Shown one piece after another: positions 26,563 to 49,981 of a stretch of 64,000 nt of DNA. This DNA comes from Klebsiella pneumoniae. Lineage in GTDB: Bacteria; Desulfobacterota; Binatia; Bin18. Location: the NCBI GenBank assembly GCA_945865755.1, contig CAMBFS010000001.1:3210-67209 (forward strand), given 5' to 3'. The position numbers and the translations under genes were made by a program. Position 1 is the first letter of the stretch. Each line of letters starts with the position of its first letter. The notes below the pieces were generated by a model. That model did not search any database, was not told where the DNA came from, and saw nothing but the letters and a program-made list of their open reading frames with translations.

Positions 26563-26634
26563 GATTGTCTCCCCCAATCACATCACTCGCGGCTCGGAAC
26601 TTGCGCATTCGCTCTTTTTCTTCTCCGCGTGAGG

Positions 26635-29656: not shown

Positions 29657-31093
29657 ATGGCTCATTTTAACGGGTACGACACGGGCGACTTTTACGACGA
29701 GATGTTTTTCGCCAGCGCGCAGCCACGCCCCGGTGCGTCTCTCCTTCAGCAGCGCATCGACTCGCTCTCGAAGGGCGAACTGCTCCAGCGTCAGCAAGCC
29801 GCGGAACGCGCGTTGTTGCATCGTGGCATTACCTTCAACGTCTACGGTGACAACGCGGGCACGGAACGCATTTTTCCCTTCGACATTCTTCCCCGCATTA
29901 TCGAAGCCTCCGAATGGGAGTGGATAGAGCGCGGGCTCAAGCAACGGGTGTATGCCCTGAATCTCTTCATCGACGACATGTATCACGAGCAGAAACTGCT
30001 CAAGGATAAGATCATTCCTGAAGAGATCGTCTATTCGGCCCGCTCGTTTCGGCAGGCGTGTGTCGGACTCAATCCCCCGCGTGGGGTGTGGTGCCACATC
30101 ACCGGCACGGACCTGGTGCGCGACCGCGACGGCCAAATCTATGTGCTGGAAGACAATCTGCGGTGCCCGTCTGGGGTATCGTATGTGTTGGAAAGCCGCC
30201 AGATTCTCAAGCGCACCTTTCCGCAAGTCTTTGGCGAGTCCCGGGTCCGCCCTGTGGACGACTATCCCGGCCACCTGCTGGATATGCTGCAAGCGCTCGC
30301 GGCGGACTATATTCAGTCGCCCACTGTGGCGGTGCTGACACCAGGGGCCTATAACTCGGCCTATTTCGAGCATTCGTTTCTCGCCCAACAGATGGGCGTG
30401 GAACTGGTTGAAGGGCGAGATCTGGTCGTCGCCGACGGCCTGGTGCAAATGCGCACCACGCATGGGCTCAAGCCTGTTGATGTCCTCTACCGGCGCATTG
30501 ATGATGATTTTCTCGATCCCTTGACCTTCCGGCCCGATTCCTTCTTGGGCGTCCCTGGTTTGATGGAGGTCTACAAAGCCGGACGGATCGCGTTGGCCAA
30601 TGCGCCGGGGACAGGCATCGCCGATGACAAAGTCATGTATGCCTACGTGCCGAAAATCATCAAATACTATCTCGGCGAAGACAGCATCATTCCCAATGTA
30701 CCGACATACGTCTGTTGGGATGAGAAGGAACGAGGCTATGTGCTTGATCACCTCGACCAGCTCGTCGTCAAAGCCGCCAATGAATCCGGGGGCTACGGCA
30801 TGTTAGTTGGCCCGCATGCCACCCCGGGCGAACGCGCGCAATTCGCGGACCTGATTCGCGCCAATCCCCGCAACTACATCGCCCAACCGACCTTATCCTT
30901 ATCGCGCGTGCCGGTGATCGTGGATGACCATTTCGAGGGGCGCCATGTCGATCTGCGACCATACATCCTGTATGGCTCGGACATTTACGTGCTCCCTGGC
31001 GGGCTCACCCGCGTGGCCCTCAAGAAAGGTTCTCTCGTTGTGAACTCCTCGCAAGGGGGCGGCAGCAAGGATACCTGGGTCTTATACAAATGA
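29657..31093 (+). CDS. Circularly permuted type 2 ATP-grasp protein
   Basis: [58 protein letters not shown]. Confidence 0.93.
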
Positions 31094-31103
31094 GAGAAAC
31101 ATC

Positions 31104-32117
31104 ATGCTTTCACGTGTCGCGGATAGTTTGTACTGGTTGAGTCGCTATATCGAGCGGGCCGAGAACGTGGCGCGGTTCATCGACGTCAATCTGCACCTCA
31201 TATTGGATTTGCCCGCCGGGGGGAGTGAACAGTGGAAACCGCTGGTGATTACCACCGGTGACGATGACCTGTTCGCCAAGCACCATACCGACGCGACACG
31301 AGAGAACGTCGTGCAATTCCTGACCTTCGCGAAGGAGAACCCGAACTCGATTGTGTCCTGCCTGCGGGCCGCGCGGGAAAATGCCCGCTCCGTGCGCGAG
31401 ATCATCTCCTCGGAAATGTGGGAGCAGGTCAACATCTTTTATTTGATGGTCCACGATTCAGCCGCGACAATCCGGGTGCGTGAATCGCCCTACGAGTTCT
31501 TTCGCGAGATTCGCATGGCGAGTCATTTGTTTGAAGGGCTGACCAACGCGACCATGTCGCACGATGAAGGGTGGCATTTTTGTCGGATGGGCCAACTCCT
31601 GGAACGGGCGGACAAAACCTCGCGCATGGTGGACGTCAAGTATTTCCTGTTACTCCCCTCGGTTGCCGATGTTGGCACGCCGTTCGATGACATTCAGTGG
31701 GCGGCGGTGCTCCGCTCGACCAGCGCGCTGGAGATGTATCGGCGGCGCTATCAAGACCTGAGTCCCGACCGCATTGTGGAATTTTTATTGCTCGATCGTG
31801 AGTTCCCGCGCTCGTTGCACTATAGCTTGATCAAGGCCGACGAATCGCTCCATGCGGTCTCCGGCACCCCGGTTGGGAGTTTTCGCAATCCCGCCGAGCA
31901 GCACTTAGGCCAACTCCGATCTGAGCTTGCGTATGCGCAAGTCGCGGACATCATTAGCTCCGGGCTGCATGAATTCCTGGATGCCTTTCAAACCAAGCTC
32001 AACCTGGTTGGCGAGAATATCTTCGCCACATTCCTGGCCTTGCAACCGATCGGCGGAGTCGTGACGGGAACGGCGAGTCAACGGCAGACGGAAGGGAAAG
32101 AACACGGGCGGGTGTGA
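31104..32117 (+). CDS. Alpha-E domain protein (DUF403)
   Basis: MLSRVADSLYWLSRYIERAEN, ARENAR..RE.IS, LERADKT, FPRS. Confidence 0.93.
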   Translation: MLSRVADSLYWLSRYIERAENVARFIDVNLHLILDLPAGGSEQWKPLVITTGDDDLFAKHHTDATRENVVQFLTFAKENPNSIVSCLRAARENARSVREIISSEMWEQVNIFYLMVHDSAATIRVRESPYEFFREIRMASHLFEGLTNATMSHDEGWHFCRMGQLLERADKTSRMVDVKYFLLLPSVADVGTPFDDIQWAAVLRSTSALEMYRRRYQDLSPDRIVEFLLLDREFPRSLHYSLIKADESLHAVSGTPVGSFRNPAEQHLGQLRSELAYAQVADIISSGLHEFLDAFQTKLNLVGENIFATFLALQPIGGVVTGTASQRQTEGKEHGRV

Positions 32118-32179
32118 CCGCGTGGCGACCGCCCCTTCTCCCTCAACCCTCTTGTTTTCCACACACGGAGGAACCGCCC

Positions 32180-32917
32180 ATGATCGAATCCCTCCTGCTC
32201 GCGGTCACACGTATCGCCACGATGTTCGGCCCTCAACATTTGAGCAACGCGACGGGCTTCTTTTTTCAACGTGAGGAGCGCTTGTTCATAATCACCAGCC
32301 GACACGTGGTGCTGGATGAGGAGAGCAATCATCGTCCGGACGGGTTGACGATCGATCTCCATACCGACCCAGAGAATGTCGCGAGCACCACGCAATTTTT
32401 CCTCCCGTTGTATAGCAACCAGCACCCACGCTGGCGGGAAGGAAGCGATTCAGCGGGACCAGTTGATATTGTCGCCTTGGAAATTCAGCGTCCGGCTTTA
32501 CCGGACACGCTCCTCCTGCACTCGTTCACCCCGGAACATCTCGTGGAACAACTCAATGAAATTGAAGTCGGCGCGCGGGTGCTGATTGTCGGCTTTCCCT
32601 TGGGGTTCCATGACGAGTTACATCAGCTCCCCGTCGCGCGGCAAGCTATTATTGCTTCGGCGTTTGGCATCCGGTTTCAAGGACGTGGCTATTTTTTGAC
32701 GGATGCGCGCCTGCATCGCGGAATGAGTGGGGCTCCAGTCGTTACCCGTATGGCCACCGCCCGCTCTGGTCGCGGGGACATGCCGTGGCTGCTGCTGGGC
32801 GTGCACGGCGCGCGCATGGATGTCACCGGCCGTGATGTCTCCCAGGACGAACGTCTGGACCTCAACTGCGCCTGGTATGCCGATATGCTGTTGACGCTGA
32901 CAGAGGACGGAGGGTGA
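32180..32917 (+). CDS. Trypsin-like serine protease
   Basis: TSRHVV (His), VDIV (Asp), GMSGAPV (Ser), IVGFPLG; start approximate (GGAGG before ATG). Confidence 0.85.
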   Translation: MIESLLLAVTRIATMFGPQHLSNATGFFFQREERLFIITSRHVVLDEESNHRPDGLTIDLHTDPENVASTTQFFLPLYSNQHPRWREGSDSAGPVDIVALEIQRPALPDTLLLHSFTPEHLVEQLNEIEVGARVLIVGFPLGFHDELHQLPVARQAIIASAFGIRFQGRGYFLTDARLHRGMSGAPVVTRMATARSGRGDMPWLLLGVHGARMDVTGRDVSQDERLDLNCAWYADMLLTLTEDGG

Positions 32918-36375: not shown

Positions 36376-37281
36376 TCATCGCATCGGCCCAACCGTTACC
36401 TTAACATCCAAGGTCTGGGTCCCACCGCCATGAATCACCCCACGTACCGGCGTGACATCAAGGAAGTCGCGCCCCCAGCCAATCGTGATGTGCTCCACCG
36501 ACGGCAGCAGATTGTTGGTGGGATCAAAGTCGATCCACCCACAGCCAGGCACGAACAGCGAAACCCACGCATGCGACGCATCCGCCCCTATCCTCCGCGG
36601 TTGGCCCAGTGGCGGATGCGTCAGCAGATACCCACTCACATAGCGCGCGGCCAGCCCCAGCGACCGCAAACACGAAATCATGAAATGCGAGAAGTCTTGG
36701 CACACCCCACGTTTCTGTTCGAAAAACGACATCACCGACGTCGTCACCGTCGTCGCCGCCGCGTCGAACTTGAAGTCGCGATGAATCTTCTCCATTAACG
36801 CGCTGGCGGCCACGACCAGCGGACGCCCAGGAAGAAAACAGTCGCTCGCATACTGCCGCAGATCGCGTTTCACGCGGACATGGGGCGATTCAAACAGGAA
36901 CTGCGTAGCGTCCAGGATGGTCGCGTCAGGACGCCAAGTCGCGCGATAGGCCAACGCCTCACGCACGGTTTCCCAAGGCGGGGTCTCCTCCCCACGGGGC
37001 GGAAGCCGCGAACTCACCTCAATGATCGAGCGCGCGACAACCTCGAGCGCGTCGTGCGCGGTCTCCAGCGCCAGGACGGTCACGGGATTGCCAAAGGGGT
37101 CACACCCCTCGTGCCGGAGTGTGGGCTCGGGCGTCACCCGTACTTCATGACTGTGGACCTGTTGGCACGCGACCGGGCGCGGCGTCAGGTGAAGCTGTTG
37201 ATGAGACAAGGAAACCGGAGCCGAATACCGATAGTGGGTGCGGTGTTCGACGCGGTAGCGCCGGGCGTCGGGTGTGTTCAT
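36376..37281 (-). CDS. Transglutaminase family protein
   Basis: Y.V.H.T.Y.Y, GVCQDFSH, ARYVSGYL, ASHAWV, FDPTN, GRDF.DV.P. Confidence 0.93.
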   Translation of the reverse strand: MNTPDARRYRVEHRTHYRYSAPVSLSHQQLHLTPRPVACQQVHSHEVRVTPEPTLRHEGCDPFGNPVTVLALETAHDALEVVARSIIEVSSRLPPRGEETPPWETVREALAYRATWRPDATILDATQFLFESPHVRVKRDLRQYASDCFLPGRPLVVAASALMEKIHRDFKFDAAATTVTTSVMSFFEQKRGVCQDFSHFMISCLRSLGLAARYVSGYLLTHPPLGQPRRIGADASHAWVSLFVPGCGWIDFDPTNNLLPSVEHITIGWGRDFLDVTPVRGVIHGGGTQTLDVKVTVGPMR

Positions 37282-39806
37282 GCGGCCACACTCGATTGCG
37301 CCCGTTCACCCACGTGGATAAAGAAGCGCTGCGCGATTTCATCGGACAACCCATACGCCGCGCGTTGGCAGGCGGCGAGCAAGGTCACAAGTTCATTACT
37401 CTCCAGTGCCGCCGCGCCCGTGCGGCCCAGCTCGTCCAGTCGCGCGAGGTCAAAATCTCGTAACGCCTGGATCAAAAGCCGCAGGTCGTGCACCGGGCGA
37501 AAGCCTAACCTCTGGGCAAGCGTCGCGAGCGCGCGCCCCAAGCCCACGAGCTGAAACCCGACGGCATGGGGGTTCGATTCGTCAAAGACCAGCAGATCAA
37601 TCACCGGCAGCAGCTCGGGCTGGCGTTGATAGCGGGCGCGATAGGTAATGCTACTGTTGCCCACTTCCAAGAGCCCGCCGAGCGCCGTATCGCGCTTGGC
37701 CGCGGGTCGCACGAGCAGTTGGCGGATCATCGACGCGAGAAACGCCAGCCGTTCAATTTGCCGCCCCAGGAGGAGGAATTGCCAGGCATCATCGCGGGTC
37801 ATGTCATCAAACGCATACCCGGCAAGCGCGGTACAAGCCGGGAGCATGCGGTTCAACACCCCCAGGGCTTCCTCAATGTTGATCGGTGCCGGTTCATGCT
37901 CATGCGCGAGCCGCTGCACCGTATACCAGTTATCCAGCGAGATGCGCTCACGAATCTGCGTCGTACAGTACAGTAGCCGGGCGGTGTTGGCGGGCAGCCC
38001 ATTCTCAACCCGTGGGTCTCCCACCGCGGCCATGACCCAAGCGTCCCCATTGGGCGCGGTGGTGGCCGCGGGGGCTTTCTTTTTCCGTCCGCCGTGAACG
38101 GTGGTGGCGTCGCGGAGCTTTTCCGTATCGCATAAGGCCAGCAGCATGTCCACGCCAAGCGAGTCGGCGGGGTCGTTTTCCACCAGGCGACGCGCGGTCG
38201 CGCGCAGCAAGCGGCCAAAGTCCTCCACCCGCTCGGCGTAGCGCCCCATCCAGAACGAATTCTCCACCGCGCGTGACGGAGAGTATTGTCCCCCCCGCAC
38301 GATATCGCGGGCCGTCACCTGCGGGTGCAACAAGGATTCCCAATTGGTGACCGCACCGTCGAGCACCCAGGTATCCTTGCTTGACCCCCCACGCTGCATA
38401 CTAATGACTTCCGTGTCCGCGTCGGGGGAGACCCGCGTCAACCCGCCGGGCATCACCTCGTAGCCATTGGCGCTCGCCACCGCGTACAGTCGTAAGCCGA
38501 TCGCGCGCGGTTCAAATCGCTGCCGCTTACCGAGCCAGGTTGGCGCATGGGAAAGCCGGACCCATTCCTGCGCGACGTAGGCATGCGGGTTGTCACGCAG
38601 TCGCTTGACCATCTGTTCCTGGGCCGCCGCGTCGAGCCGGTGACCGAAAGTGGCCTCCAGCTTCATGGAGGGAAAGGCGGACTTGATGACGAGATCAGGC
38701 AGATGGGCCACCACATGGTCGAGCGCGGGCGCTTCCCCACACCACCACGTCGCCACCGAAGGTAAGACGAGCGACTCCCCCAAGAGGGCTTGGCAAATCC
38801 CCGGCAGAAACCCCAGTAACGCGGGATTCTCTAGCACACCTGAGCCGAGCGCATTGGCAATGACCACATGGCCGGCCTGAGCCGCGGCAAGCAAGCCCGG
38901 CACCCCCAACGCGGAATCGGCGCGTAACGTCGCGGGGTCGCAGTACTCGTCATCCAGCCGGCGGAGCAGCACATGCACGCGCTTGAGCCCTTCCAGGGTT
39001 TTCAAGTAGACGCGATTCTCGCGCACGGTCAGGTCGGAGCCTTCCACCAGGACAAAGCCGAGGTAGCGCGCCAGGAAGACGTGCTCAAAGTAGGTTTCGT
39101 TGTACGGGCCGGGGGTGAGCAACGCGATCACCGGCGGCTCGCCATTGGTCGGCGCGAGCGCGGCCAAGCGCTCTTGCAGCGTGCGGAAGAAATGCGCGAG
39201 GCGTTGCACGCCGAGTGTCCGAAACAACGTGCCGTGCATCGGCCCCACGATGAGCCGGTTCTGCAACGCGTAGCCGCTCCCCGACGGGCCTTGCGTCCGA
39301 TCCGCCAGTATCCACCAGCGTCCATCCGCGGAGCGCGCGAGGTCACAACTATAGAGGTGGAGATAGGTCCCCCCCACCGGCGGGACACCCCGGCAGGGCC
39401 ACAGATAGTTGCGATGCCCATAGATAATCGCCGGGGGCAGTAACCCCTCGGCCAGCAACCGCCCCGGTCCGTACAGGTCAGCCAAGACCATGTTCAATAA
39501 GCGCGCGCGTTGGGCCACGGCGCGGGCGAGGACATGCCATTCCTCGGGGCCGATAATCAAGGGCAGCACGTCCACTTCCCACGGGCGGTCCGCCCCCTTG
39601 GTATCCGCGTAAATGTTATAGGTGACGCCGTCCTGCTCGACCGCTCGCCGAACGGATCGGGCATGCCGCATCAACTCGGCCTGGCCCATCCGCGACACTG
39701 TTTGCGCGAATTGTTCCCAATGCGAGCGCGGCTGCCCCGCGCTCGCAAACACTTCATCATAGCGGTCAGGCTTGAGGGCGTAGCTCGTGAATTTTGACGA
39801 TGTCAT
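37278..39806 (-). CDS. Circularly permuted ATP-grasp fused to alpha-E domain
   Basis: GVTYN.Y, PSGSGYA, NETYFEH, GGSSKDTWV, then SRAVENSFWMGRYAER, GRQIER, ESNPH. Confidence 0.92.
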   Translation of the reverse strand: MTSSKFTSYALKPDRYDEVFASAGQPRSHWEQFAQTVSRMGQAELMRHARSVRRAVEQDGVTYNIYADTKGADRPWEVDVLPLIIGPEEWHVLARAVAQRARLLNMVLADLYGPGRLLAEGLLPPAIIYGHRNYLWPCRGVPPVGGTYLHLYSCDLARSADGRWWILADRTQGPSGSGYALQNRLIVGPMHGTLFRTLGVQRLAHFFRTLQERLAALAPTNGEPPVIALLTPGPYNETYFEHVFLARYLGFVLVEGSDLTVRENRVYLKTLEGLKRVHVLLRRLDDEYCDPATLRADSALGVPGLLAAAQAGHVVIANALGSGVLENPALLGFLPGICQALLGESLVLPSVATWWCGEAPALDHVVAHLPDLVIKSAFPSMKLEATFGHRLDAAAQEQMVKRLRDNPHAYVAQEWVRLSHAPTWLGKRQRFEPRAIGLRLYAVASANGYEVMPGGLTRVSPDADTEVISMQRGGSSKDTWVLDGAVTNWESLLHPQVTARDIVRGGQYSPSRAVENSFWMGRYAERVEDFGRLLRATARRLVENDPADSLGVDMLLALCDTEKLRDATTVHGGRKKKAPAATTAPNGDAWVMAAVGDPRVENGLPANTARLLYCTTQIRERISLDNWYTVQRLAHEHEPAPINIEEALGVLNRMLPACTALAGYAFDDMTRDDAWQFLLLGRQIERLAFLASMIRQLLVRPAAKRDTALGGLLEVGNSSITYRARYQRQPELLPVIDLLVFDESNPHAVGFQLVGLGRALATLAQRLGFRPVHDLRLLIQALRDFDLARLDELGRTGAAALESNELVTLLAACQRAAYGLSDEIAQRFFIHVGERAQSSVAA
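39759..39806. repeat. Direct repeat copy A (5' end of ATP-grasp/alpha-E gene)
   Basis: 46/48 identical to 46479-46526; 40 bp exact (39763-39802 = 46483-46522). Confidence 0.95.
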
Positions 39807-39988
39807 GGGTGGTATGTCCGGGGAAAAGACAGAAAAATGTGGAGTGTGAAACGACCTTTTTTCTCTTCTCTCTTATCAATTTTGATGATCAAAATCGGTC
39901 ATGGCCGTAAGGTCGCTTTCAGGTTCCTTCTCCCAGCCGGGAGAGGGAGCTTCGAAATCTCCTAACTTAATGCCATTACTCTTCTGCC

Positions 39989-42900
39989 CTACCATGTTCC
40001 ACGGTATTCCCCGGTCAAGGTAACGCCTGCCCAGAAGTAGGGGGCTTGCCAGGACCGCTGTTGATCTTCGAGGACCGCTAACTGGGCGGCCCGGAGGGCG
40101 CTGGCTGTTGTCTGATGTTGCTGCAACTGGCGGTGGAAATGCGTCATCAGGGCTGCGGTTGCCGCATCGTTCACGGTCCACAGTGTCGAAATGACACTAG
40201 GTGTTCCAGCGGAGAGGAAGGCTCGGGTCAAGCCGATAATCTCATCGCCATTACTCTGTGCCCCCAGGGCCGTATTACAAGCTGAGAGAACAACCAGATG
40301 GGTAGCGCTCAGATCAAGACCGTAGATGTCCAAGGCTTTCAGTTGACCAGCGGGCTGATCAGCGGGACTGAGCTTGATGTAACTGAGCAGTGCATGGGTT
40401 TGATTGTAGACGCCATGCGCGGCGAGATGGAGGACTGTGCTGCCGCCAGCCTTCTCATACAGCCGCGTTTTGGTGGCCTCAGCTCCCACCAGCGCTTGGG
40501 TCTGGTACAGCGCGGCAATGGCCTTGGCCTCGGTTGCGGCCTCCGGTAAGGAGCCGTCCGGGTTACCAAACACCAGTATCTGGGGAGTAGTCGCCTGGCG
40601 TTTGGGCCGCACAAAACGCAGGACGCTCGCGCTGGGAGCTAGGGTCAACGCATAGTCCTGCAGGAGATAGCGTTGGCTGGTTTTGTTCCGCAAGGCACTA
40701 AACGGCAAATAATGTAACGGTCCATGCGGTACGATGATCAGATTAGTGTGGCGAATAGCGGATTGGAGAGGCGCGATAAGCTGTGTATGGAGCAGCTCCA
40801 GTGCTGGTGGGCTCGCTCCCTGGGGGTGGGTGAGCAAGTCGTTGAGGGTCCGTACATCGGTGGCCAATTGTCCCTTGGGCACTGGCAAGGTGAACAACTG
40901 AGCCTTGTCCCGGTCGATTACCCACGCGAGGGTCTGTTTGGTGGTGACAAAGTACGAAATGAGAGTGGTGTGTTCATCCAGAAGATCGCGTTGTATCTCC
41001 GCCAGACTGACGGTATGAACGCTGAAAAGCGCGGCGTACTCCGGGTGCGTCTGTTGGAGACGTGCTAATGCTTTGTCGTACTCCTGGCGTTTCTGCTCCC
41101 ACTGCTGACGTATGGTTTGACATGCGGTGTTCTCAGGTTCCTCTCCGCGTGTGGGCTCACTTGGACAGGCGGCGAGACGGTTCTGCAAGACCGTCAGGGC
41201 GCTGCGTAGTTCCTCCATAGGCGCGCGGACTTCCGGTGGCGCCCCGTGGACGGGGAGCGCGCGCTGGCCGAGCTGATTTAAGAAGGCGCGCGCCCGTGCT
41301 CGTTCGGCATACGCAAAACTGCCAGCGGTATCCTGGCCGGTGGCGAGCAATTCAATAACGTGTTCGTAGAGTGGAGTCTGAGCACTGGCAAAGCCGGCCA
41401 CCAAGCTATCGAGGCGTATGGCGCCCTGGACATTCTCAACGGCGTCGATGGCTGCATAATACCACTTGATAGCTTCTGGGAGCTGCCCTTGTTTTTCGTA
41501 GACGGTGGCAATGCCCTGCAAGGCCGTAGCCTGCAGTTCGAGCGGCAGATATTTCTCAACCATCTGATACGTCCGGAGGGCTTCGGAAAGCTGCCCCCGA
41601 GTCAGAAGGTCATGTGCGCTCCGTAGCTGTTGACTGTCATCAAGGAGATTTTCTCCAGGGAGGCAGAATGCAAGCTGTGATTTCGCGGGAAGGCCAGCCT
41701 GTTTTGCCTGTTGGTCTTCTTCGGTTAGGCTCTGCCGCGGAGATTTCCGTGTCGATGCTTCGCGACTCGGCAGACCGCCATGGGTAACCTCAGTACTCGG
41801 TAAATCGACCGACGACGTGGCCTCAACCTGTTCCCACGCCTTGAGGTAATTCTCCCGGGCTTTATCGAGGCGGTCACGACGCGCGAAAAGGTCTCCTAAC
41901 ATATTCAGGCGCGTGATTTCCAGGCGAGGTGGACAGACTATGAGGCGTGTGGCAGAGGGAGCAACGTCAGCTTGCCACTGTAGGAGAGGGGCGATCATTG
42001 GCTGGACTTGTTGCGCCATAGCCTGGGATGTCAGGCCGCCTTCTATCATCATCTTACCTGTGCGATAGCCTCTTATGAACTTCTGATGGTACTCCAGCGC
42101 CATCTTACGCTGTTGCTGCAAGGATTCCTCGACTTGCACGCGATAGCGACAGCGAGTTTTCTCTTCCTGGGGCTTCTGCTGACACTGGGCCAGCATTTCG
42201 GCTAGCAACGGTCCCGGCTCGGGGTGATGCTCTGGCACCGGCACGCGCCGCTCGTTGGGGACAGAGGCTTGGCGCTCCCAGCGTGGGGTTTCTGCTTGGA
42301 ATTCCGCGAGGGCTTCGCGTTGATACCGCTGAAACTGCTTGTCCGTGGAGGAAAGCGGAGGAAGAGGGATATTCTCTTCCTCAAACGAGCTGTCATCGTT
42401 TTCCTGTCGCATCATGTTCAGAACCGCCTCCGGGACCCGGTGAGGTCCAGCAAAGAGGCGGTGACGCATAGCAATAGCCAGCGCTTTGCTTTCCTGCGGT
42501 TTCAGCAGTGGCCGCAGCACGGTCTCCGCCTGACGTAAAGCGTCCTCTGCCTTGAGGTCAGCGCCCAGGCGGACATACAACTTCGCTATCTGGATGAGTC
42601 CTTGCGCTCGGGTCAGTGCTGGGCTGTCTGGCCCCCAGAAAGACTGGGCCGCTTCAAAGTGTGTGAGGGCCTCTTCATAGAGCCCCAGCAAGCGGGCCGA
42701 CAATCCGAGAAAAGTATGGGTCTTAGCGGCAGCATGGCGGTCATCAAGCGTCTGCCAGAGGGCGAGCGCCTCGGTCAACAACTGCCGGGATTTGGTCGTA
42801 AGGCCGAGGTTCTGGTAGGTTTCGCCAAGGCTCGTCAAAATGGCGGCTTCGGCTTGGCGATTCTTGAGATCGCGCGCTAGGTCAAGTGCTAGGCGGTAGT

Positions 42901-43447
42901 GCGCCACGCCTTCCGCCGGATTCATCATTGAACTGGCACGACCGAGTCCGTGCCGGGCCTCGACTTCAGCGGACCGGTTGCCGGCGCGACGTGCCAGGAC
43001 GAAGGCGCGCTCAAACGTCGGAGCGGCGACAAGCGGGACACTGTCTTCGAGCAAGCGTTTCCCCTCCGCAAGTAATTTTTCTACCGGTTGTTCGAGATCT
43101 GTCGCTGAAAGGGTCGTGGACGACGAGTCCTCCGCACGCTGTTTGAGGAGTTTATTTGTTGCCGAATCAAACTTTCCTGTGGCGGGTAATCCATGCTCAC
43201 GTTGGAATTGACGCAGGGCGTCTTGCATCTTCTTCTTCCCGCTACGCTTAACGCCATCTTCGGGGTCAACGTTATCTTCGGAGTCAACGTTATCTTCGGA
43301 GTCAACGTCATCTTCGGGGTCATACCCTTGGGCTTGGAGCGTTTGTTGCGCCTGCACGATGCGCATCGGTTCCTGGGCGGCAACGGTGTTGCCCAGGCAA
43401 CCCCACACCGTCAGGCAACATCCTATCCCCCAAATATATTGGGACAT
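39989..43447 (-). CDS. Exported peptidoglycan-binding / TPR / CHAT (caspase-like) protein
   Basis: Signal-like N-terminus (VAA-QE), PG_binding_1 (L...GYDP...ALRQFQREHGLPATG), TPRs, IVPHGPLHYLPF, LHLAAHG and VLSACNT dyad, APYFWA. Confidence 0.88.
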   Translation of the reverse strand: MSQYIWGIGCCLTVWGCLGNTVAAQEPMRIVQAQQTLQAQGYDPEDDVDSEDNVDSEDNVDPEDGVKRSGKKKMQDALRQFQREHGLPATGKFDSATNKLLKQRAEDSSSTTLSATDLEQPVEKLLAEGKRLLEDSVPLVAAPTFERAFVLARRAGNRSAEVEARHGLGRASSMMNPAEGVAHYRLALDLARDLKNRQAEAAILTSLGETYQNLGLTTKSRQLLTEALALWQTLDDRHAAAKTHTFLGLSARLLGLYEEALTHFEAAQSFWGPDSPALTRAQGLIQIAKLYVRLGADLKAEDALRQAETVLRPLLKPQESKALAIAMRHRLFAGPHRVPEAVLNMMRQENDDSSFEEENIPLPPLSSTDKQFQRYQREALAEFQAETPRWERQASVPNERRVPVPEHHPEPGPLLAEMLAQCQQKPQEEKTRCRYRVQVEESLQQQRKMALEYHQKFIRGYRTGKMMIEGGLTSQAMAQQVQPMIAPLLQWQADVAPSATRLIVCPPRLEITRLNMLGDLFARRDRLDKARENYLKAWEQVEATSSVDLPSTEVTHGGLPSREASTRKSPRQSLTEEDQQAKQAGLPAKSQLAFCLPGENLLDDSQQLRSAHDLLTRGQLSEALRTYQMVEKYLPLELQATALQGIATVYEKQGQLPEAIKWYYAAIDAVENVQGAIRLDSLVAGFASAQTPLYEHVIELLATGQDTAGSFAYAERARARAFLNQLGQRALPVHGAPPEVRAPMEELRSALTVLQNRLAACPSEPTRGEEPENTACQTIRQQWEQKRQEYDKALARLQQTHPEYAALFSVHTVSLAEIQRDLLDEHTTLISYFVTTKQTLAWVIDRDKAQLFTLPVPKGQLATDVRTLNDLLTHPQGASPPALELLHTQLIAPLQSAIRHTNLIIVPHGPLHYLPFSALRNKTSQRYLLQDYALTLAPSASVLRFVRPKRQATTPQILVFGNPDGSLPEAATEAKAIAALYQTQALVGAEATKTRLYEKAGGSTVLHLAAHGVYNQTHALLSYIKLSPADQPAGQLKALDIYGLDLSATHLVVLSACNTALGAQSNGDEIIGLTRAFLSAGTPSVISTLWTVNDAATAALMTHFHRQLQQHQTTASALRAAQLAVLEDQQRSWQAPYFWAGVTLTGEYRGTW

Positions 43448-43491
43448 TATGTTCTCTCCTTCTCACTAGTGTGCACCGTAGCGGTGCATGA

Positions 43492-44702
43492 TTACTGTTG
43501 TTGCCGCTGACGAGCGTCTTCCGTAGCGCGGCGGGCCTCTGCGGCCTCGGCTTCCGCCCCCATGTCGGTGTAGAGAGCGGCGGCTTGGGCAAATGAATCA
43601 GCCGCCTCCTTAAAGCGGTGCGTGGCATAGGACACCCGTCCTACCCCAAACATGGCCGCCGCGCGAGTCGCGGGACTCGGGGACAGCTCCAGAGCGGAGG
43701 CGTAGCTTTGCTGGGCGCGGGGATAGAGCTGGGTTATCAGATAGAGGTCACCCACCATCACCGAGACCTCTGCCGACGCCTGCCGTTGCAGCACTGCCTC
43801 GCAGGTGGCGAGCGCGTCCTCCCAGAGCTTATGCGTGACATACAGCCGGGCTAGGAGGAGGTCACGCGTAGTTTCTTCCACGGGAACGGTCAGCAGGTGG
43901 GCACGTTGTGTCTCGACAGCGGCGCGCTGTTCTGGCGTGAGGAGCGTCAGGTGAGATCTATCGGATGTCGAGGGTTCGGCCATGAGACTGAGACGAGCCC
44001 CAACGCGGAGAAACGCGGGCTGCCCCGGTATCAACGCTTGTTCCGGAGGAAAGGGTGTTGAGCAAACTCTTGGCGTGCGGTCTCCCTGGACCTCAGGGCC
44101 GCAAGTGACCTGGGAGGCGTCTAGACGAAAGGGTGGGTATCCTGTCACAGTAATCTCATATTCCACCGCTTGGGGCACCTGGGTCCACCGGATGGACGGG
44201 GTCGGGGCTCTAAGAGGGTCGTGTGCCGCGGACTGATGATGACCGGGACACCGTCCGTGTTCGTTGATGTCCGATCTTCACCCGGTAACACCTGGGCGCC
44301 AGCGATAGCCAGGACATAGCCGGGCTGCGGACGGACATCGCGATAGAGGCTGATGCCAACGTCCGTGCCCCGCCGACAAGCGCCCTCTGTAACTACCCAC
44401 TGCTCGGCGTTCTCGAGCCAAATCCAATGTCCCGTTGAACATATCAGTCCAGCTTGGACGGTGCCGCCCATCTCTTCGGGTTCTCCCTCCAGCACCGTCC
44501 CAGATTGGAGCACCTGGAGAGGATGGACGCGCCAGGAGATTGTCCCTTCTCTCACCATAATCCGACCTTTTGACTGGGTGAGCACCGCGTCGACCTGCTG
44601 TGCCAGAGCGTTTGCTAAGGAGCCACCCCACCACACGCTCATAAGACTTCCGAGGAGTCCGAGCGTCCTCCAATCTGTTTCACCTCTCCGGCAATTGGTC
44701 AT
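43492..44702 (-). pseudogene. Exported TPR protein split by a one-base frameshift near 44200
   Basis: Signal peptide (ALA-QQ); ISPRHTTLLEPRP continues as SIRWTQVPQAVEYEITV in the next frame; C-terminal TPRs. Confidence 0.7.
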
Positions 44703-44734
44703 AGCTGTCACTTCTCTCCCTCCCTGGTCGCGGG

Positions 44735-45676
44735 TTAAGCACACTGTGCCTCTTTCTCCAGATTACGCAGGTCCTTCTCAGGAACGTGGAGCCACCAGCC
44801 TTCACTACGTGCTTGGAGGTCTCGAAGCCTTTCGCATACTTGCGGATACTGCTTGAGGGCACGGGCTACCCGAGCCAGATCATATTGCACACGCACTTCG
44901 GCTTGCCAATCTTCCGGCGTTTGTGCCCGGAATAACGTGAGTGCGTGCTCAAGATGCTGACCCGCTTCCGCGAGCTGTTGCTCTTCAAGGGCGATTTCTC
45001 CCAAATGTTGATGGAGCTGCGGTATACGGGGATTACACCGCAGTCCATCTGTAAACGCTTTACCCGCGGGTTTCAGTTGTCGAGCATCTTTATACAGAAT
45101 GCCCAAGGCATTGTAGGCTTTGCCACACACTAATACCGGATCATTCTCGATCAGACCTGCACCACCGTTGAGAGGGGGAGCATGTTCCAACTCAGTGGCC
45201 TTCTTGAAGTGGCGCAGGGCAGATTCGAAATCGTTATTGTCGCGCGAGTGGCGCTGGGCATGCAGCTTGCCCAGCGCCAAGTGATACAGCCTGACGTTCT
45301 CGGCGTGCATGATGGCATTCTTGTAATGATCCAGGGCGTTACTTAACTGCCCCTGACCGATGGCAAGCTGGCCAAGGTTAGCGTGCGCTTGACTTAATGA
45401 GGGGAGCCACCAGAGGGCATCCTGGAATGCCTGGGCAGCATAGCGACCCTCACCGGCCATCGCCAAGGTAACGCCGTGATTGTTCAGACTTTGCGCTTGC
45501 CGATGCTTGTAGTAAGTCCATCCCTGCCAAAGGCCGACCCCCAGTGCGAAGAGCACTACACCCACCGCAACCCATCGTAGCCACTGGACTTGCGGTGGGT
45601 CTGGTGAGCCTGATGTCCGCCCCGACGTCTTCGGCTCCTCTCGCGGCGTCGGGGCTAATGAGGGCGCTCGGTCACC
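44735..45676 (-). CDS. TM plus TPR protein; frame open upstream to 45676, probably the frameshifted C-terminus of the nucleosidase
   Basis: Pro-rich linker, TM WLRWVAVGVVLFALGVGLWQGW, TPRs (AHANLG, YHLALG, AYNALG, LHQHLG). Confidence 0.7.
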   Translation of the reverse strand, partial: GDRAPSLAPTPREEPKTSGRTSGSPDPPQVQWLRWVAVGVVLFALGVGLWQGWTYYKHRQAQSLNNHGVTLAMAGEGRYAAQAFQDALWWLPSLSQAHANLGQLAIGQGQLSNALDHYKNAIMHAENVRLYHLALGKLHAQRHSRDNNDFESALRHFKKATELEHAPPLNGGAGLIENDPVLVCGKAYNALGILYKDARQLKPAGKAFTDGLRCNPRIPQLHQHLGEIALEEQQLAEAGQHLEHALTLFRAQTPEDWQAEVRVQYDLARVARALKQYPQVCERLRDLQARSEGWWLHVPEKDLRNLEKEAQCA

Positions 45677-46464
45677 TCAATCAAACCATTGCTGAGCTTT
45701 GCGAGCATCTCAAAAGCGAAGGCACTCGCATGCCCAGAGGCGATACTCTGGTACCCTGCGGCATCCGCTTTGCCCTTGGCATCAACGAGGTCCGAAATAC
45801 CACGAATAATCAATGCCTCGACTTGGTTAGCGTGCGCACCTTGCAGTACGCCAAATCCTTCCATTTCGACCGCGAGGGCATCGCCATAGTTGGTTTGCAA
45901 AAACCGATAGACTTCGGAATGCGTATCGGCAACGACTTTCTCCCCGGCTGCGATAGCTCCCACAAATACTTGCGGCGGCGGAGAAGGGACGACGTTGAGC
46001 CGTTTCAACCAATCGGTTTTCCGAGCTTCCGCCCGTGCCCGCTGGACTAAGCGAAAAGCGGAATTGCCCACGATGGGTCGAGGCAGAAAGGTTGCTTTTG
46101 CTTTGCCAGACTCGTACCCATACACTTTCGTCGCTACGACCACATCCCCTAGTGCAACGTCTTTAAGTCCGCCGCCCACTCCAACAAAAAAAAGAACGTT
46201 CGGCTGGAAATGCTGAATCGCCCGTTCGGCCTCCAACACCGCCGAATTATTCCCCGCACCCATCTCGACAAGCACTACTTCCCAAAAACTATCGCCTGAT
46301 ATGAAGATGCCTCTTTCGTAGACAGTTCCGTGGGGATGCGTTTCTTCTCGGAGGTCAGTCAGGTAGGCTTTTACCGCCTGGTATTCAACGGGAAGTGCGG
46401 TCAAGAGAACAACTCGGCCTAAAAGACGATTCTCCGATTTTTTCTTACTGGGGGACTCGTTCAT
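45655..46464 (-). CDS. PNP_UDP_1 / MTA-SAH nucleosidase-like domain protein
   Basis: LTALPVEY, GAGN, FVGVGGG..DV.LGDVVV, IAAGEKVV, AVEMEG, IRGISD. Confidence 0.88.
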   Translation of the reverse strand: MNESPSKKKSENRLLGRVVLLTALPVEYQAVKAYLTDLREETHPHGTVYERGIFISGDSFWEVVLVEMGAGNNSAVLEAERAIQHFQPNVLFFVGVGGGLKDVALGDVVVATKVYGYESGKAKATFLPRPIVGNSAFRLVQRARAEARKTDWLKRLNVVPSPPPQVFVGAIAAGEKVVADTHSEVYRFLQTNYGDALAVEMEGFGVLQGAHANQVEALIIRGISDLVDAKGKADAAGYQSIASGHASAFAFEMLAKLSNGLIEVTERPH

Positions 46465-46478
46465 TGTGGGTATTCCTT

Positions 46479-46526
46479 ATACCGGTCAGGCTTGAGGGCG
46501 TAGCTCGTGAATTTTGACGATGCCAT
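46479..46526. repeat. Direct repeat copy B; starts a 21-codon leader ORF 46461-46526 on the minus strand
   Basis: Encodes MASSKFTSYALKPDRYKEYPQ versus MTSSKFTSYALKPDRYDEV in the ATP-grasp gene. Confidence 0.95.
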
Positions 46527-46597
46527 TGATGGGTCGTACCTTGAGACTAGAGGCTTGAGACTAGGGACTTGAGACCTTGGACTTTGGACCTTGGACT

Positions 46598-49500
46598 TCA
46601 GCCCTTGCGCAGGTCAAGTGTAAAGGGGAACTCCGGGTCAACCCGCGGTGGAGCGACTTCCAGGCGTCCCTGCGTGTGCCCGATACGAAAGAACCGCGCC
46701 TGGCGGCGACTCTCCGCCTCAAAGGCGTTGATCGGGAACGTCTCATAATGGCGTCCGCCCGGATGCGTCACATGATACTGACACCCGCCCAGGCTGCGTT
46801 CCATCCAGCGATCAACCACATCAATGATAAGCGGCGTGTGCACCTCAATCGTCGGATGCAGCGCGGTCTCTGGTTGCCACGCTCGATAGCGGACCCCAAC
46901 CACGAACTCCCCCACCGTCCCGGTCGGTTGCAAGGGCAGCGGGACCCCGTTGCAGGTGATCACGTGGCGATCCGGTGGCAGCCCGGTCACTTTGACTTGG
47001 AGCCGTTCAAGCGAAGCATCCACGTAACGGACCGTCCCACCCGGTGCCCCTTCTTCGCCCATCACATGCCAGGGCTCAAGCGCGCTGCGCAGTTCGAGCG
47101 TGATCCCGCGGGTGGCGAAGTCGCCATATTGAGGAAAACGAAACTCAAAGTGCGGCGCGAACCAGCGCGCCTCAAACGGGTATCCAGCCTCGTGCAATTC
47201 GCTGAGGACATCGACAAAGTCCAGCCACACGAAGTGCGGCAGCAGGAACCGATCATGGAGTTCGGTCCCCCAGCGCACCAAGCGTGGCGGTGAGTAGGGC
47301 GTGCGCCAAAAGCGCGCGACCAGGGCCCGTAACAACAGTTGCTGGGTCAAGCTCATGCGCGCGTGCGGGGGCATTTCGAACGCGCGCATTTCCAGCAGGC
47401 CCAGCCGCCCGGTGGCACTGTCCGGGGAATAGAGTTTGTCGATACAAAATTCCGCGCGATGCGTGTTCCCGCTCACGTCGATCAACAAGTTGCGCAGGAG
47501 GCGATCCACCAGCCACGGGGGGCAGCGGTCACCATGCGCGCGGGTCTGCCGTTCCATCTCGCGAAAGGCGATCTCGATCTCCGCGACCGCATCGTTGCGG
47601 GCCTCGTCAATCCGCGGGGCTTGGGACGTGGGACCGATGAAGAGGCCCGAAAACAAGTACGAGAGGGACGGGTGATTGTGCCAATAACTCAGCAGACTGC
47701 GTAACAGGTCCGGTCGGCGGAGCCAGGGCGAGTCGGTTGGGGTCGCCGCGCCCAGGGCAAAGTGGTTGCCGCCCCCGGTCCCGGTGTGACGTCCATCGAG
47801 CATGAATTTTTCGCTGGTGAGGCGCGACTGCCGGGCCTGGTCGTACAGAAATGTCGTGCGCTCGACCAGTTCCTCCCAGCCAGCGGCGGGATGAATGTTC
47901 ACCTCGATCACGCCGGGGTCTGGCGTCAGTTGGAACTGCACGAGCCGCGGGTCGCGCGGCGGCTCATAGCCTTCCAGCAGCACGGGCTGCTGCTGGTGTT
48001 CCGCCGTGGCTTCCACTGCGGTCACGATCTCCAGGTACTCTTCCAGCGACCTGACTGGAGGCATGAAGATATAGAGGATGCCGTTACGGACCTCGGCACA
48101 TAACGCGGTGCGGGCGATCCAGTCCGCGCTCTCACCGACTCGTGGCGCGGCCACTCGTGGGGGCGTGGCCACTCGTGGGGGCGTGGGGACGGGAGCACTA
48201 TACTCCGCGACGCTCGTCAGTCCTGTTGGCCTGCGGCTGCTCGGGTGCGTTTCGGGCCATTGCGGGGTCATCTGCGCACGCAGTTCACGATACGGTGACA
48301 GGGGCGCGCGCGGCGCGGTGGGATCGGCTGGATGTAGGTATGGGTAATCTGTCTTTTTCACCCAGGGGAGCGAGTCCAGCGGGAGACGATAGCCCAGCGG
48401 CGAATCCCCCGGAATCAGATGGCAGCGCTGATCGCGCAAAAACCAAGAGCTGGAAATCCACCGATCCGTCGCGGGATCACGTGAGAGCGGCACCGCATAG
48501 CCGACCGCCTGCTTCAGCCCTTGCGAAAAGACGCGGCGCAGGCGTTCCCGTTCCAGCGGATCCTCAAGACGTGAATCAAACAGATCGACATTGCTGGGCA
48601 AGTTGCGTTCGCGCCACAGAAAATAGAGCGCATCCTCGTATGCTGGAAAGATATACTGGGTATCGAGACCCAGCCGGGTCGTCACCTCACGGAGGAACGC
48701 TTCCGCCGTGGCGGCGGTCGCCTGGCCCGGTTGGGATTCGTCGGCGATCAGCGCGTCATTGAGCCAGAGCGGTTCTCCGTCTTTGCGCCAAAAGCAATTG
48801 AGCGACCAGCGGGGGAGCTGCTCCCCCGGATACCATTTGCCTTGGCCAAAGTGGACCAGCCCACGAGCCCCATACTGGTTGCGCAAGCGATGATAGAGGG
48901 TAGCCGCCAACTTTCTCTTGGTTGGTCCCACCGCAGTGGTGTTCCACTCCTCTCCGTCGGGATCATCAATGGCGACAAACGTGGGCTCACCACCCATAGT
49001 CAGTCGGACATCCTGAGCCTGTAAATCCGCATCGACATCCGTCCCCAGCCGCACGATCGTCCGCCATTCTTCCTCGGTGTAGGGCTTGGTCACCCGTGGG
49101 GCTTCCCATATCCGGGAGACCGACATCTGGTGGGAAAAGGTCACCTCGCACGCATCAAGGGTGCCGGTAATCGGTGCCGCGGACGAGGGCATTGGCGAGC
49201 ACGCCAGTGGGAGATGCCCTTCGCCGGCGAACAGCCCCGAGGTCGGGTCCAACCCCACCCAGCCCGCTCCGGGGAGGTACACCTCGGCCCAGGCGTGGAG
49301 ATCAGTGAAATCCTTGTCTGGCCCGGAGGGACCATCGAGTGATTTCACATCGGCTGTGAGTTGAATGAGATACCCGGACACGAACCGGGCGGCAAACCCC
49401 AGATGTCGCAGCAGTTGGACCAGCAGCCACCCCGAGTCACGACAGGAGCCTGACCGTTTCACCAGGGTTTCCTCCGGCGTTTGCACGCCGGGCTCCAGGC

Positions 49501-49981
49501 GAATCACGTATTGAATGTCGCCAGCAAGGCGACGATTGAGGTTGGCGAGAAAGGGCACCATCTCTGCCTTGTCGCGGGGAATCCCTGCGAGATAGCTCGC
49601 GAACAGCGGCGTCGCCGGTTCCCGCGTACAGTAGGGCGCGAGTTCGACCAACAACTCCGGTTCATACGCAAAAGGATAGTGCTCAGCGTACGGTTCCAAG
49701 AAGAAGTCGAAGGGGTTGATGACCGCCATCTCCGCGACGAGGTCGACTTCAACCCGCAACTCGCGCGTCGGTTCGAGAAACATGAGCCGGGCGAGATAAT
49801 TGGCTTGCGGGTCTTGTTGCCAGTTAATGAAATGGGTGGTGGGCAAGACCCGTAGCGAGTAGCTCAGGATCCGCGTCCGGCAATGTGGGGCTGGTCGCAG
49901 GCGAACAACCTGGGGGCCCAGGGTAATCAGTCGGTCATAGTGATAATGCGTCGTATGGTGCAAAGCGATGTGAATTGACAT
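46598..49981 (-). CDS. Transglutaminase plus putative amidoligase (DUF2126) protein
   Basis: SGSCRDSGWLLV, DLHAWAEV, DPTSG, LTMGGEPTFV, TPDPGVIEVN, GTGGGNH, NAFEAESRR. Confidence 0.92.
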   Translation of the reverse strand: MSIHIALHHTTHYHYDRLITLGPQVVRLRPAPHCRTRILSYSLRVLPTTHFINWQQDPQANYLARLMFLEPTRELRVEVDLVAEMAVINPFDFFLEPYAEHYPFAYEPELLVELAPYCTREPATPLFASYLAGIPRDKAEMVPFLANLNRRLAGDIQYVIRLEPGVQTPEETLVKRSGSCRDSGWLLVQLLRHLGFAARFVSGYLIQLTADVKSLDGPSGPDKDFTDLHAWAEVYLPGAGWVGLDPTSGLFAGEGHLPLACSPMPSSAAPITGTLDACEVTFSHQMSVSRIWEAPRVTKPYTEEEWRTIVRLGTDVDADLQAQDVRLTMGGEPTFVAIDDPDGEEWNTTAVGPTKRKLAATLYHRLRNQYGARGLVHFGQGKWYPGEQLPRWSLNCFWRKDGEPLWLNDALIADESQPGQATAATAEAFLREVTTRLGLDTQYIFPAYEDALYFLWRERNLPSNVDLFDSRLEDPLERERLRRVFSQGLKQAVGYAVPLSRDPATDRWISSSWFLRDQRCHLIPGDSPLGYRLPLDSLPWVKKTDYPYLHPADPTAPRAPLSPYRELRAQMTPQWPETHPSSRRPTGLTSVAEYSAPVPTPPRVATPPRVAAPRVGESADWIARTALCAEVRNGILYIFMPPVRSLEEYLEIVTAVEATAEHQQQPVLLEGYEPPRDPRLVQFQLTPDPGVIEVNIHPAAGWEELVERTTFLYDQARQSRLTSEKFMLDGRHTGTGGGNHFALGAATPTDSPWLRRPDLLRSLLSYWHNHPSLSYLFSGLFIGPTSQAPRIDEARNDAVAEIEIAFREMERQTRAHGDRCPPWLVDRLLRNLLIDVSGNTHRAEFCIDKLYSPDSATGRLGLLEMRAFEMPPHARMSLTQQLLLRALVARFWRTPYSPPRLVRWGTELHDRFLLPHFVWLDFVDVLSELHEAGYPFEARWFAPHFEFRFPQYGDFATRGITLELRSALEPWHVMGEEGAPGGTVRYVDASLERLQVKVTGLPPDRHVITCNGVPLPLQPTGTVGEFVVGVRYRAWQPETALHPTIEVHTPLIIDVVDRWMERSLGGCQYHVTHPGGRHYETFPINAFEAESRRQARFFRIGHTQGRLEVAPPRVDPEFPFTLDLRKG

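Follow-up and report, generated by a model that had tools for sequence, protein, structure and literature searches.

A foreign 6.7-kb cassette between two copies of a gene start in a conserved DUF2126/ATP-grasp operon, possibly inserted without a recombinase

Integrative elements that target the 5' ends of genes are known from several bacteria. As set out in a section of PMC8409611, the dusA integrative elements (such as IMEVchUSA3) and the SXT/R391 elements at prfC insert in the first codons of their target, are flanked by direct repeats and leave the frame of the downstream gene open with its start beside the element. We found a 6.7-kb cassette with a similar outward layout in a stretch of 64,000 nucleotides (nt), called the window below, from contig CAMBFS010000001.1 of the assembly GCA_945865755.1. 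This metagenome-assembled genome (MAG; G000 below) was deposited as Klebsiella pneumoniae and placed by GTDB in the class Binatia of the Desulfobacterota. The cassette separated a DUF2126 gene from the gene of a circularly permuted (CP) ATP-grasp/Alpha-E protein in a host operon and was bounded by two copies of the start of the latter gene. The dusA and SXT elements were 20-100 kb long, had a tyrosine integrase and a directionality factor, supplied a divergent N-terminus and a new promoter, and used the same site in many hosts. Here, in contrast, the insert was 6.7 kb long and had no recombinase, the two N-termini were nearly identical and host-like, and the site was empty in all other genomes searched.

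The concept of the cis-mobilizable element (CIME) is familiar from the streptococcal literature. According to a part of PMC5704250, CIMEs retained the attachment (att) sites attL and attR as direct repeats around a cargo without mobility genes, the genes for integration and for transfer having been lost. Such elements had a cognate integrative and conjugative or integrative and mobilizable element with the same att core and an integrase at the same gene end, whereas no partner, third core or recurrent site was found here. Transposons and insertion sequences are recognized by a transposase, terminal inverted repeats and a target duplication of 2-15 bp. In our case there was no transposase, the duplication measured 48-60 nt, and no terminal inverted repeats of the insert were present among the 25 longest of the 30 pairs listed. 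Double illegitimate recombination, including its short-patch form (SPDIR), was similar in that it required neither a recombinase nor long homology and placed its junctions at short similarities, as far as an extract of bioRxiv 10.1101/2023.11.22.568220 describes it; a short similarity of this kind, GAA, was shared here at the cargo-proximal edge of the repeat. The cassette resembled a genomic islet that restores a gene end, and we class it as an islet without a recombinase that is bounded by direct repeats at the start of a gene, which is an uncommon variant of a common theme.

All genes of the locus were on the minus strand (Table 1). In the order of transcription there were the DUF2126 gene, a 7-nt array, the orphan repeat copy, a PNP-type nucleosidase gene, a TPR gene, two overlapping open reading frames (ORFs), a CHAT protease gene, a non-coding tail, the ATP-grasp/Alpha-E gene and a transglutaminase-like gene. 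Thus, the order DUF2126 - ATP-grasp/Alpha-E - transglutaminase that a first-pass annotation had given for the operon without the insert was correct by ORFs and Pfam domains. The three Pfam architectures of this operon scored far above their cut-offs, the genes were co-oriented, and their adjacency was broken only here. The first-pass annotation had also described a 48-bp duplication, and its coordinates and identity were reproduced: 39759-39806 and 46479-46526 were identical at 46 of 48 positions, with mismatches at 39762 and 39803, and lay 6720 nt apart. In the wider comparison with MAFFT and a repeat finder, 54 of 60 ungapped positions (90%) were the same at this spacing. Both copies contained a perfect run of 40 nt (39763-39802 and 46483-46522) that had just two matches in the window at up to three mismatches, while none of 100 shuffles gave any match. 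The repeat segment occurred in only two places of the whole genome (3.72 Mb, 228 contigs, 84.8% complete). The remaining matches of a whole-genome query with the repeat region were all to the heptamer array beside the repeat. Apart from two small families of dispersed repeats, the repeat pair was the sole similarity that a genome self-BLAST showed within the insert.

The repeat comprised the first 16 codons of the ATP-grasp gene, from its ATG on, and weaker similarity reached about 6 nt upstream of the ATG and two imperfectly matching codons downstream. The functional copy was translated as MTSSKFTSYALKPDRYDEV..., whereas the orphan copy opened a 21-codon ORF that read MASSKFTSYALKPDRYKEYPQ followed by a stop. 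The TGA of this short ORF (46463-46461) overlapped the ATG of the nucleosidase gene (46464-46462) as ATGA, which is the usual layout for translational coupling, and only 10 nt separated the orphan copy from this first cargo ATG. The copies agreed at three positions where the relatives G001, G003 and G011 all differed and at four positions where both same-genus relatives (G001 and G003) differed. Within the 48-mer there were two differences between the copies, compared with five between the functional copy and G001, and the copies shared 16 of 17 residues. Judged by these bases, the two copies were each other's nearest kin.

The relatives had the empty locus that the first-pass annotation had proposed to look for, and the insertion reading was based on this result. 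The ATP-grasp protein was searched in 41 genomes; 27 of them matched at E<=1e-50, and 20 of the loci were examined by tblastn. In 11 of these loci (L010, L011, L036, L013-L017, L019, L026 and L027) the 3' end of the DUF2126 gene was directly upstream of the ATP-grasp gene, with a spacing below about 50 nt in ten and of about 270 nt in one. In the three closest relatives (G001 and G003 from the same genus, and G011) the DUF2126 stop was followed by 11-16 nt and then by the ATG. Seven loci had no DUF2126 within 1.5 kb and two were cut by contig ends; five genomes without an upstream DUF2126, searched whole with our query, gave no DUF2126 match at all. At the 11 other junctions neither the cargo nor anything else was inserted. 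The flanking proteins themselves were well conserved: the DUF2126 protein was 88-98% identical in amino acids to its relatives across the last ~490 residues, and the ATP-grasp/Alpha-E protein was 84-91% identical to those of G001, G003 and G011 over its full length.

The cargo genes were rare among related genomes. The PNP gene was present in two of the 41 genomes, G000 included, and the other match was only 66% identical and located at a contig end. The CHAT gene was found in one of 56 genomes of the order (E<=1e-80), and the first piece of the third cargo gene (orf199) in one of 401 genomes sampled across the phylum. The GC and codon profile, another check suggested in advance, marked the cargo as foreign. 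Namely, the GC content at third codon positions was 0.54-0.66 in the cargo versus 0.72-0.77 in the three operon genes (genome median 0.675), and the codon-usage scores fell at percentiles 2.7-16.5 among 1436 long ORFs, versus 76-98 for the operon genes. The 6.7-kb cassette was acquired horizontally and was inserted once, in this lineage only, into a conserved operon; a gain in this lineage was far more economical than a loss in eleven others.

As to how the cassette arrived, we propose that it was inserted once and independently of a recombinase, in an event that duplicated sequence of the host itself. We assign to this a probability of roughly 0.45, and we see an even chance that it is the best explanation of the locus as a whole. 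Incoming DNA would have been integrated by an illegitimate or microhomology-guided route at a replication fork; alternatively, template switching may have re-entered ~50-60 nt upstream of the exit point. In both cases the duplication would be host sequence copied at insertion and not the crossover core of a site-specific element. A host-derived duplication was favoured because both copies carried lineage-private bases. A route without a recombinase was favoured because the 10 nt on the nucleosidase side leave no room for arm sites, because the site was empty in all 11 other genomes, and because a recombination module had left no remnant. The downstream copy keeps the ATP-grasp gene whole, and the orphan copy retains the original start site, from which it opens the 21-codon ORF. 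Since the cargo was co-oriented with the operon and promoter and terminator scans of the junctions gave nothing above shuffles, transcription of the cargo most likely reads through from the promoter of the operon. The nucleosidase may be translated by coupling to the 21-codon ORF with its native initiation region. The ATP-grasp and transglutaminase genes were now 6.7 kb farther from the operon promoter, behind a BoxC-like hairpin.

The insert today behaves as a fixed, slowly decaying passenger, because it had no mobility gene, contained one broken gene and had small repeats of the genome's own at both ends. Its residence for some time was suggested by the broken gene, the BoxC-like composite in the tail, the heptamer array and the two differences between the repeat copies. 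A RecA-dependent and presumably rare loop-out across the 40-nt run is possible in principle and would restore the ancestral operon; it was not seen. The stretch was present in six lake-water metagenome runs of two studies (runs dated 2020-2022), and the Logan contigs of four runs, with a possible source run excluded, were compared with the locus. In these contigs, which drop rare variants, there was neither a 6720-nt skip nor a back-joint of an excised or circular form. A joint from 39948 to 46573 that skipped 6624 nt (X4 and X5, with 18-20 nt on the short side) was read as another locus and not as an excision, since both of its ends were in dispersed repeats, the BoxC-like hairpin and the heptamer array.

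Several points weighed against a recombinase-independent origin. A gene end restored by direct repeats of tens of bp is the classic signature of integration by a tyrosine recombinase. To our knowledge, recombinase-independent insertions with a target duplication of 50-60 bp have rarely been documented, and our literature search found no case in which a target duplication of 50-60 nt enclosed kilobases of foreign DNA. The mismatches between the copies were at the edges and none was in the central 40 nt, a pattern that also fits an att core or later gene conversion. Moreover, the shared private bases could have resulted from repeated excision and re-integration within the lineage, or from conversion. 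The SPDIR patches described in the same bioRxiv extract (10.1101/2023.11.22.568220) measured 3 to ~100 bp, compared with an insert of 6.7 kb and a duplication of 50-60 nt here. Finally, the end-joining protein Ku was not found in the 84.8% complete genome, which left capture by end joining unsupported. Longer segments do integrate by a route of the SPDIR type in Acinetobacter.

Site-specific integration was the alternative that survived best, although we considered it rather unlikely. In this scenario, an integrative element whose attP contained ~50 nt from the beginning of the ATP-grasp gene would have recombined with the chromosomal gene start, the repeats would be attL and attR, and the integrase would have been deleted later, as in CIMEs, or would have acted in trans. 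Such a history is the usual explanation for repeats of this kind. It accounts for direct repeats at both ends, for the restored target gene and for the foreign composition of the cargo, and the perfect 40-nt centre with mismatched margins resembled a core. The delivery of a new N-terminus by 5'-end integration has been documented for dusA elements and SXT, as the section of PMC8409611 reports; however, the element-borne N-terminus given there for a dusA element was only 61% identical to the native one, whereas the supposed element-borne copy here had lineage-private bases and 16 of 17 residues of the native copy. The enzyme was also missing. No recombinase or transposase domain was found by Pfam in the five main ORFs of the insert, and none of 30 further insert ORFs of at least 60 amino acids (aa), taken from all frames, had a Pfam match at E<=0.01. 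The earlier statement that the insert held no integrase or transposase was therefore sustained over both sets of ORFs, and neither these nor the rest of the window held an excisionase. Likewise, no recombinase was present among the 43 other scanned ORFs of the window, which encoded housekeeping and signalling proteins and two defence-type families (Schlafen-type and STAND).

Searches beyond the window gave a similar picture. The repeat core had no third copy in the genome and was not matched exactly by any viral contig. A search of phages gave no similar DNA, and plasmids, which were cyanobacterial, gave only 64-65% matches to the PNP gene. The genome had eight Phage_integrase-family matches, all on other contigs and without a link to the repeat core, and thus left room for help in trans. 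On the other hand, an att origin was difficult to reconcile with the lack of space for arm sites beside the nucleosidase gene, with the unoccupied site in all 11 other genomes that had the junction, and with the lack of an excision joint in the contigs of the four runs. The first-pass annotation had spoken of an att-like integration that restored the target gene. The part of this claim that concerned an insertion keeping the gene whole through duplication was supported by our results. Its att-like and mobilizable character was not shown, given that neither the insert nor the 64-kb window held a recombinase, that a third (attP-like) copy and another occupied site were lacking, and that both copies carried the private bases of the lineage.

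A Campbell-type single crossover or an allelic transfer was improbable in our view. Here a circle, for example a looped-out copy, or a linear fragment would have come from a conspecific strain in which the cassette was already present, and would have recombined through the ~50-nt homology or the flanking genes. The repeat would then have been inherited and not made in this genome, and a donor from this lineage would agree with the shared private bases. The perfect run of 40 nt is also near the minimum usually quoted for RecA-dependent exchange. However, the structure would still have had to arise in another strain, no second strain type (with an empty site or another cargo) was present in the contigs of the four runs, and the same-genus genomes G001 and G003 lacked the cassette. 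We gave a slightly smaller chance to the possibility that the repeats are working att sites of a family of recombinase-less cassettes that land on the first codons of an operon-internal gene and are moved in trans by a tyrosine recombinase of the genome, in the manner of CIMEs or integrons. In such a case the cassette would carry the translation start of the gene, so that the host gene would survive while the cargo would borrow host transcription and the displaced start codon. Conflict genes would in this manner be brought into housekeeping operons.

It was very improbable that the structure was an assembly artefact, i.e., a chimeric MAG contig joined through the shared 40-mer. The genome was indeed a MAG of 228 contigs. 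The Logan contigs (k=31) broke within the 40-nt run, at 39773/39792 and at 46493, so that short-k graphs were ambiguous there, and no contig among those listed, beside which there were 189 further pieces, bridged the left junction. However, the cargo was found in six runs of two studies and was covered by contigs at 99-100% identity in all four runs compared. A 1484-nt contig from the other study (X4 record 24; 46369-47852) joined the nucleosidase gene to the DUF2126 gene across the entire orphan copy, with zero differences. In addition, the repeat copies differed at two positions flanking the shared run, and their contexts were different yet coherent, one being an intact gene and the other a short ORF ending on the next ATG. 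The first-pass annotation had allowed that relatives might carry the insert without the duplication or that the repeat might be an artefact. No relative had the insert, and the right junction was bridged by this independent contig. Least plausible was an ancestral cassette lost precisely from all relatives by recombination across the repeat: this would yield their exact arrangement, but it needs independent losses in 11 genomes of several genera and two classes, and it conflicts with the foreign codon usage and with the lack of a cargo homologue in the samples of the order and phylum.

Table 1. Features of the operon and of the inserted cassette, in window coordinates
Feature	Position	Strand	Basis
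DUF2126 gene (Bact_transglu_N + Transglut_core + DUF2126 amidoligase), first of the host operon, intact	46598..49981	-	Pfam DUF2126, 1339.8 bits
7-nt/14-nt tandem array, between the DUF2126 stop and the orphan repeat	46540..46607		TRF, period 7/14
Orphan (upstream) direct-repeat copy	46473..46532	-	~6 nt spacer, ATG + 15 codons, two imperfect codons
21-codon remnant ORF (MASSKFTSYALKPDRYKEYPQ, then stop) from the orphan ATG	46461..46526	-	Translation
Cargo gene 1, stand-alone PNP_UDP_1 nucleosidase/phosphorylase, 269 aa	45655..46464	-	Pfam, 1.9e-30
Cargo gene 2, TPR protein, 276 aa	44735..45565	-	Pfam TPR families
Cargo gene 3, N-terminal half (orf199), signal peptide-like start + beta domain	44145..44744	-	Aligns to P0002 residues 1-171
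Cargo gene 3, C-terminal half (TPR228), Ig-like beta-sandwich + TPR, MtxA_C/DUF928-like	43492..44178	-	P0002 residues 178-409, 59% identity
Cargo gene 4, exported PG_binding_1 + TPR + CHAT (caspase-like) protease, 1152 aa	39989..43447	-	Pfam CHAT 2.2e-72, TPR_12, PG_binding_1
Non-coding insert tail, 182 nt	39807..39988		Contains the composite BoxC/REP-like repeat 39867-39986
Downstream direct-repeat copy, the functional start of the ATP-grasp gene	39753..39812	-	Repeat comparison, translation
Circularly permuted ATP-grasp + Alpha-E gene, 842 aa, intact	37278..39806	-	Pfam CP_ATPgrasp_2 6.8e-151, Alpha-E 6.2e-58
Transglutaminase-like gene, last of the host operon, 4-nt overlap with the ATP-grasp stop	36376..37281	-	Pfam, ORF coordinates

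The first cargo protein, the PNP nucleosidase, matched two PADLOC models, PDC-M60C at 1.2e-19 and 'Effector PN-superfamily' at 4.8e-18 (PADLOC matches were to single proteins only), and scored below the cut-offs of all NCBIfam nucleosidase models. Its relatives, taken as the best 79 loci of 277 confirmed stretches, were at most 69% identical and were mostly cyanobacterial, with some from Chloroflexota, Acidobacteriota and other groups. In most of these 79 loci the PNP domain formed the N-terminus of a protein of 300-1700 aa. We considered whether PNP, the TPR protein of gene 2 (TPR276) and the other ORFs were fragments of one PNP-fusion protein. This was rejected, since tblastn with the 79 full-length homologues gave no collinear match downstream of the PNP domain. 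TPR276 had a hydrophobic N-terminus, which by eye may be a membrane anchor. The 89-nt spacer between the nucleosidase and TPR genes had a 17-nt inverted repeat (45554-45606; 88% complementary, 19-nt loop) that overlapped the first possible TPR start.

The overlapping ORFs orf199 and TPR228 were two halves of one protein of ~409 aa, whose best homologue outside was P0002 (409 aa). Because P0002 aligned across both ORFs, the third cargo gene was considered to be broken by a frameshift; the frame was lost between 44199 and 44178 in a C-rich stretch. A contig from an independent run (X2 record 6; 43517-44417) had the same sequence across the break, with no indels listed. A HMMER search with orf199 gave 48 proteins at E<=1e-3, most of them of 380-440 aa. 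The structural model of P0002 (30 aligned homologues, mean predicted local distance difference test score 86) had two beta domains and a TPR array besides a flexible N-terminus. The best match of the model in the PDB was the C-terminal domain of MtxA, with Ig-like and TPR parts (4z29; E 4.5e-5, TM score 0.70 on the target), and the Atlas leads, MtxA_C and DUF928, agreed with this. Two distant homologues were fused to CHAT-TPR proteins; therefore, this type of protein is tied to CHAT proteases. In the literature searched, supplements lying outside the search, no paper was found that named DUF2126 or paired DUF928 with CHAT.

The product of the fourth cargo gene had a hydrophobic N-terminus, a peptidoglycan-binding domain and TPRs. 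By eye, its translation contained HLAAHG and LSACNT, which we take to be the His and Cys motifs of caspase-like enzymes. An 18-nt tandem repeat in this gene (43256-43322; 3.7 copies, 93% matches) encoded an acidic hexapeptide repeat of the DSEDNV type after the signal-peptide-like start. The protein was rejected as a TPR-CHAT protease Csx29 of type III-E CRISPR systems, since it scored 53.6 bits against NF041237, whose cut-off is 300. Three of the four cargo proteins look exported or membrane-bound. No conserved synteny of the cargo was found in 79 genome loci with PNP homologues, in 36 metagenome loci with CHAT homologues or in two cyanobacterial plasmids.

Part of a survey by Kaur, Burroughs, Iyer and Aravind (2020; PMC7159879) presents PNPase-superfamily and caspase-like (CHAT) domains with TPRs as shared effectors and sensors of nucleoside triphosphate (NTP)-dependent conflict systems. 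The nearest relatives of our PNP, mostly N-terminal domains of long multidomain proteins, were similar to what that part describes. Unlike those systems, the cassette lacked a MoxR-vWA, STAND or GTPase core, and no conserved synteny with a described system was found. We read the cargo, from its domain content, as a putative envelope-associated TPR-CHAT protease module with a cytoplasmic nucleosidase, which would be conflict- or defence-like by its parts, belongs to no named system and is partly decayed. It adds to the contexts in which PNP-type nucleosidases and exported TPR-CHAT proteases occur.

Dispersed repeats were present at both ends of the insert. Fragments of local repeat families had been reported at 39881-39977 and were real, being part of the composite in the tail, which matched ~40 other places of the genome. 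This composite combined two BoxC/REP-like hairpin families, with one family's left arm joined to the other's right arm. The families shared the hairpin core CCCTCTCCC-(A/G)GC(C/T)-GGGAGAGGG, and their members were found on the G000 contigs C10, C98, C68, C27, C31, C44, C45 and C162 (L040-L048). The fold of the 196-nt cargo tail was ordinary (z = -1.27). The heptamer family (GTCCAAG / GTCTCAA type, minus strand) was represented by the array of Table 1, by 28457-28513 and by more than 40 other places in G000. The array was located exactly between the DUF2126 stop and the orphan copy and was absent from G001, G003 and G011; the stop was TGA here, compared with TAA or TAG in relatives.

Similar events were also sought elsewhere in G000. 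Its self-BLAST contained 24 local direct-repeat pairs of low copy number, and Pfam was run on the ORFs around six of them. The clearest of these, a pair on contig C169 with two histidine kinases, was rejected as paralogous domains. The best candidate was a pair of recombinase-less direct repeats of 136 nt on contig C6 (13484-13619 and 21879-22014; L137:1485-1620 and 9880-10015), which were 90% identical, lay 8.4 kb apart and included the last 87 nt of a HAD hydrolase gene. They enclosed a NACHT-HEAT protein, an RTX protein, an ECF-type sigma factor with a zf-HC2 protein and a Lon_C-like ORF. Because all relatives had a different sequence downstream of the HAD gene, this pair could not be demonstrated to flank an insertion.

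Some other features of the window and genome were noted. About 4 kb from the operon (29657-32917, plus strand) there was a split version of the same enzyme type, with CP_ATPgrasp (478 aa), Alpha-E (337 aa) and a Trypsin_2 peptidase as three genes. A DnaB helicase gene (23290-26577, minus strand) had an intein with LAGLIDADG homing-endonuclease and HTH_31 domains. The defence-type genes of the window, both on the minus strand, encoded a Schlafen AlbA_2 + HATPase_c_4 protein (1746-2939) and a STAND-type AAA_16 protein with MalT-like TPRs (61288-63969). Elsewhere in the genome, contig C62 (2758-4302; L136) had a gene for a group II intron reverse transcriptase/maturase (RVT_1 + GIIM). The photosystem reaction-centre family was not found in the 84.8% complete genome.

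The practical weight of the finding is modest, as it concerns a single event at one locus in one lineage with no sign of present activity. If the repeats were att sites, the locus would be an example of a recombinase-less mobilizable cassette at the 5' end of a gene. A duplication made with no recombinase would instead make it a clean natural case of foreign DNA entering a packed operon with no gene killed. The start of the target would have been copied, the downstream gene rebuilt, and the leftover start reused by the arriving genes. Cases of this kind are considered rare, and it is uncommon for both junctions and the empty site to be available.

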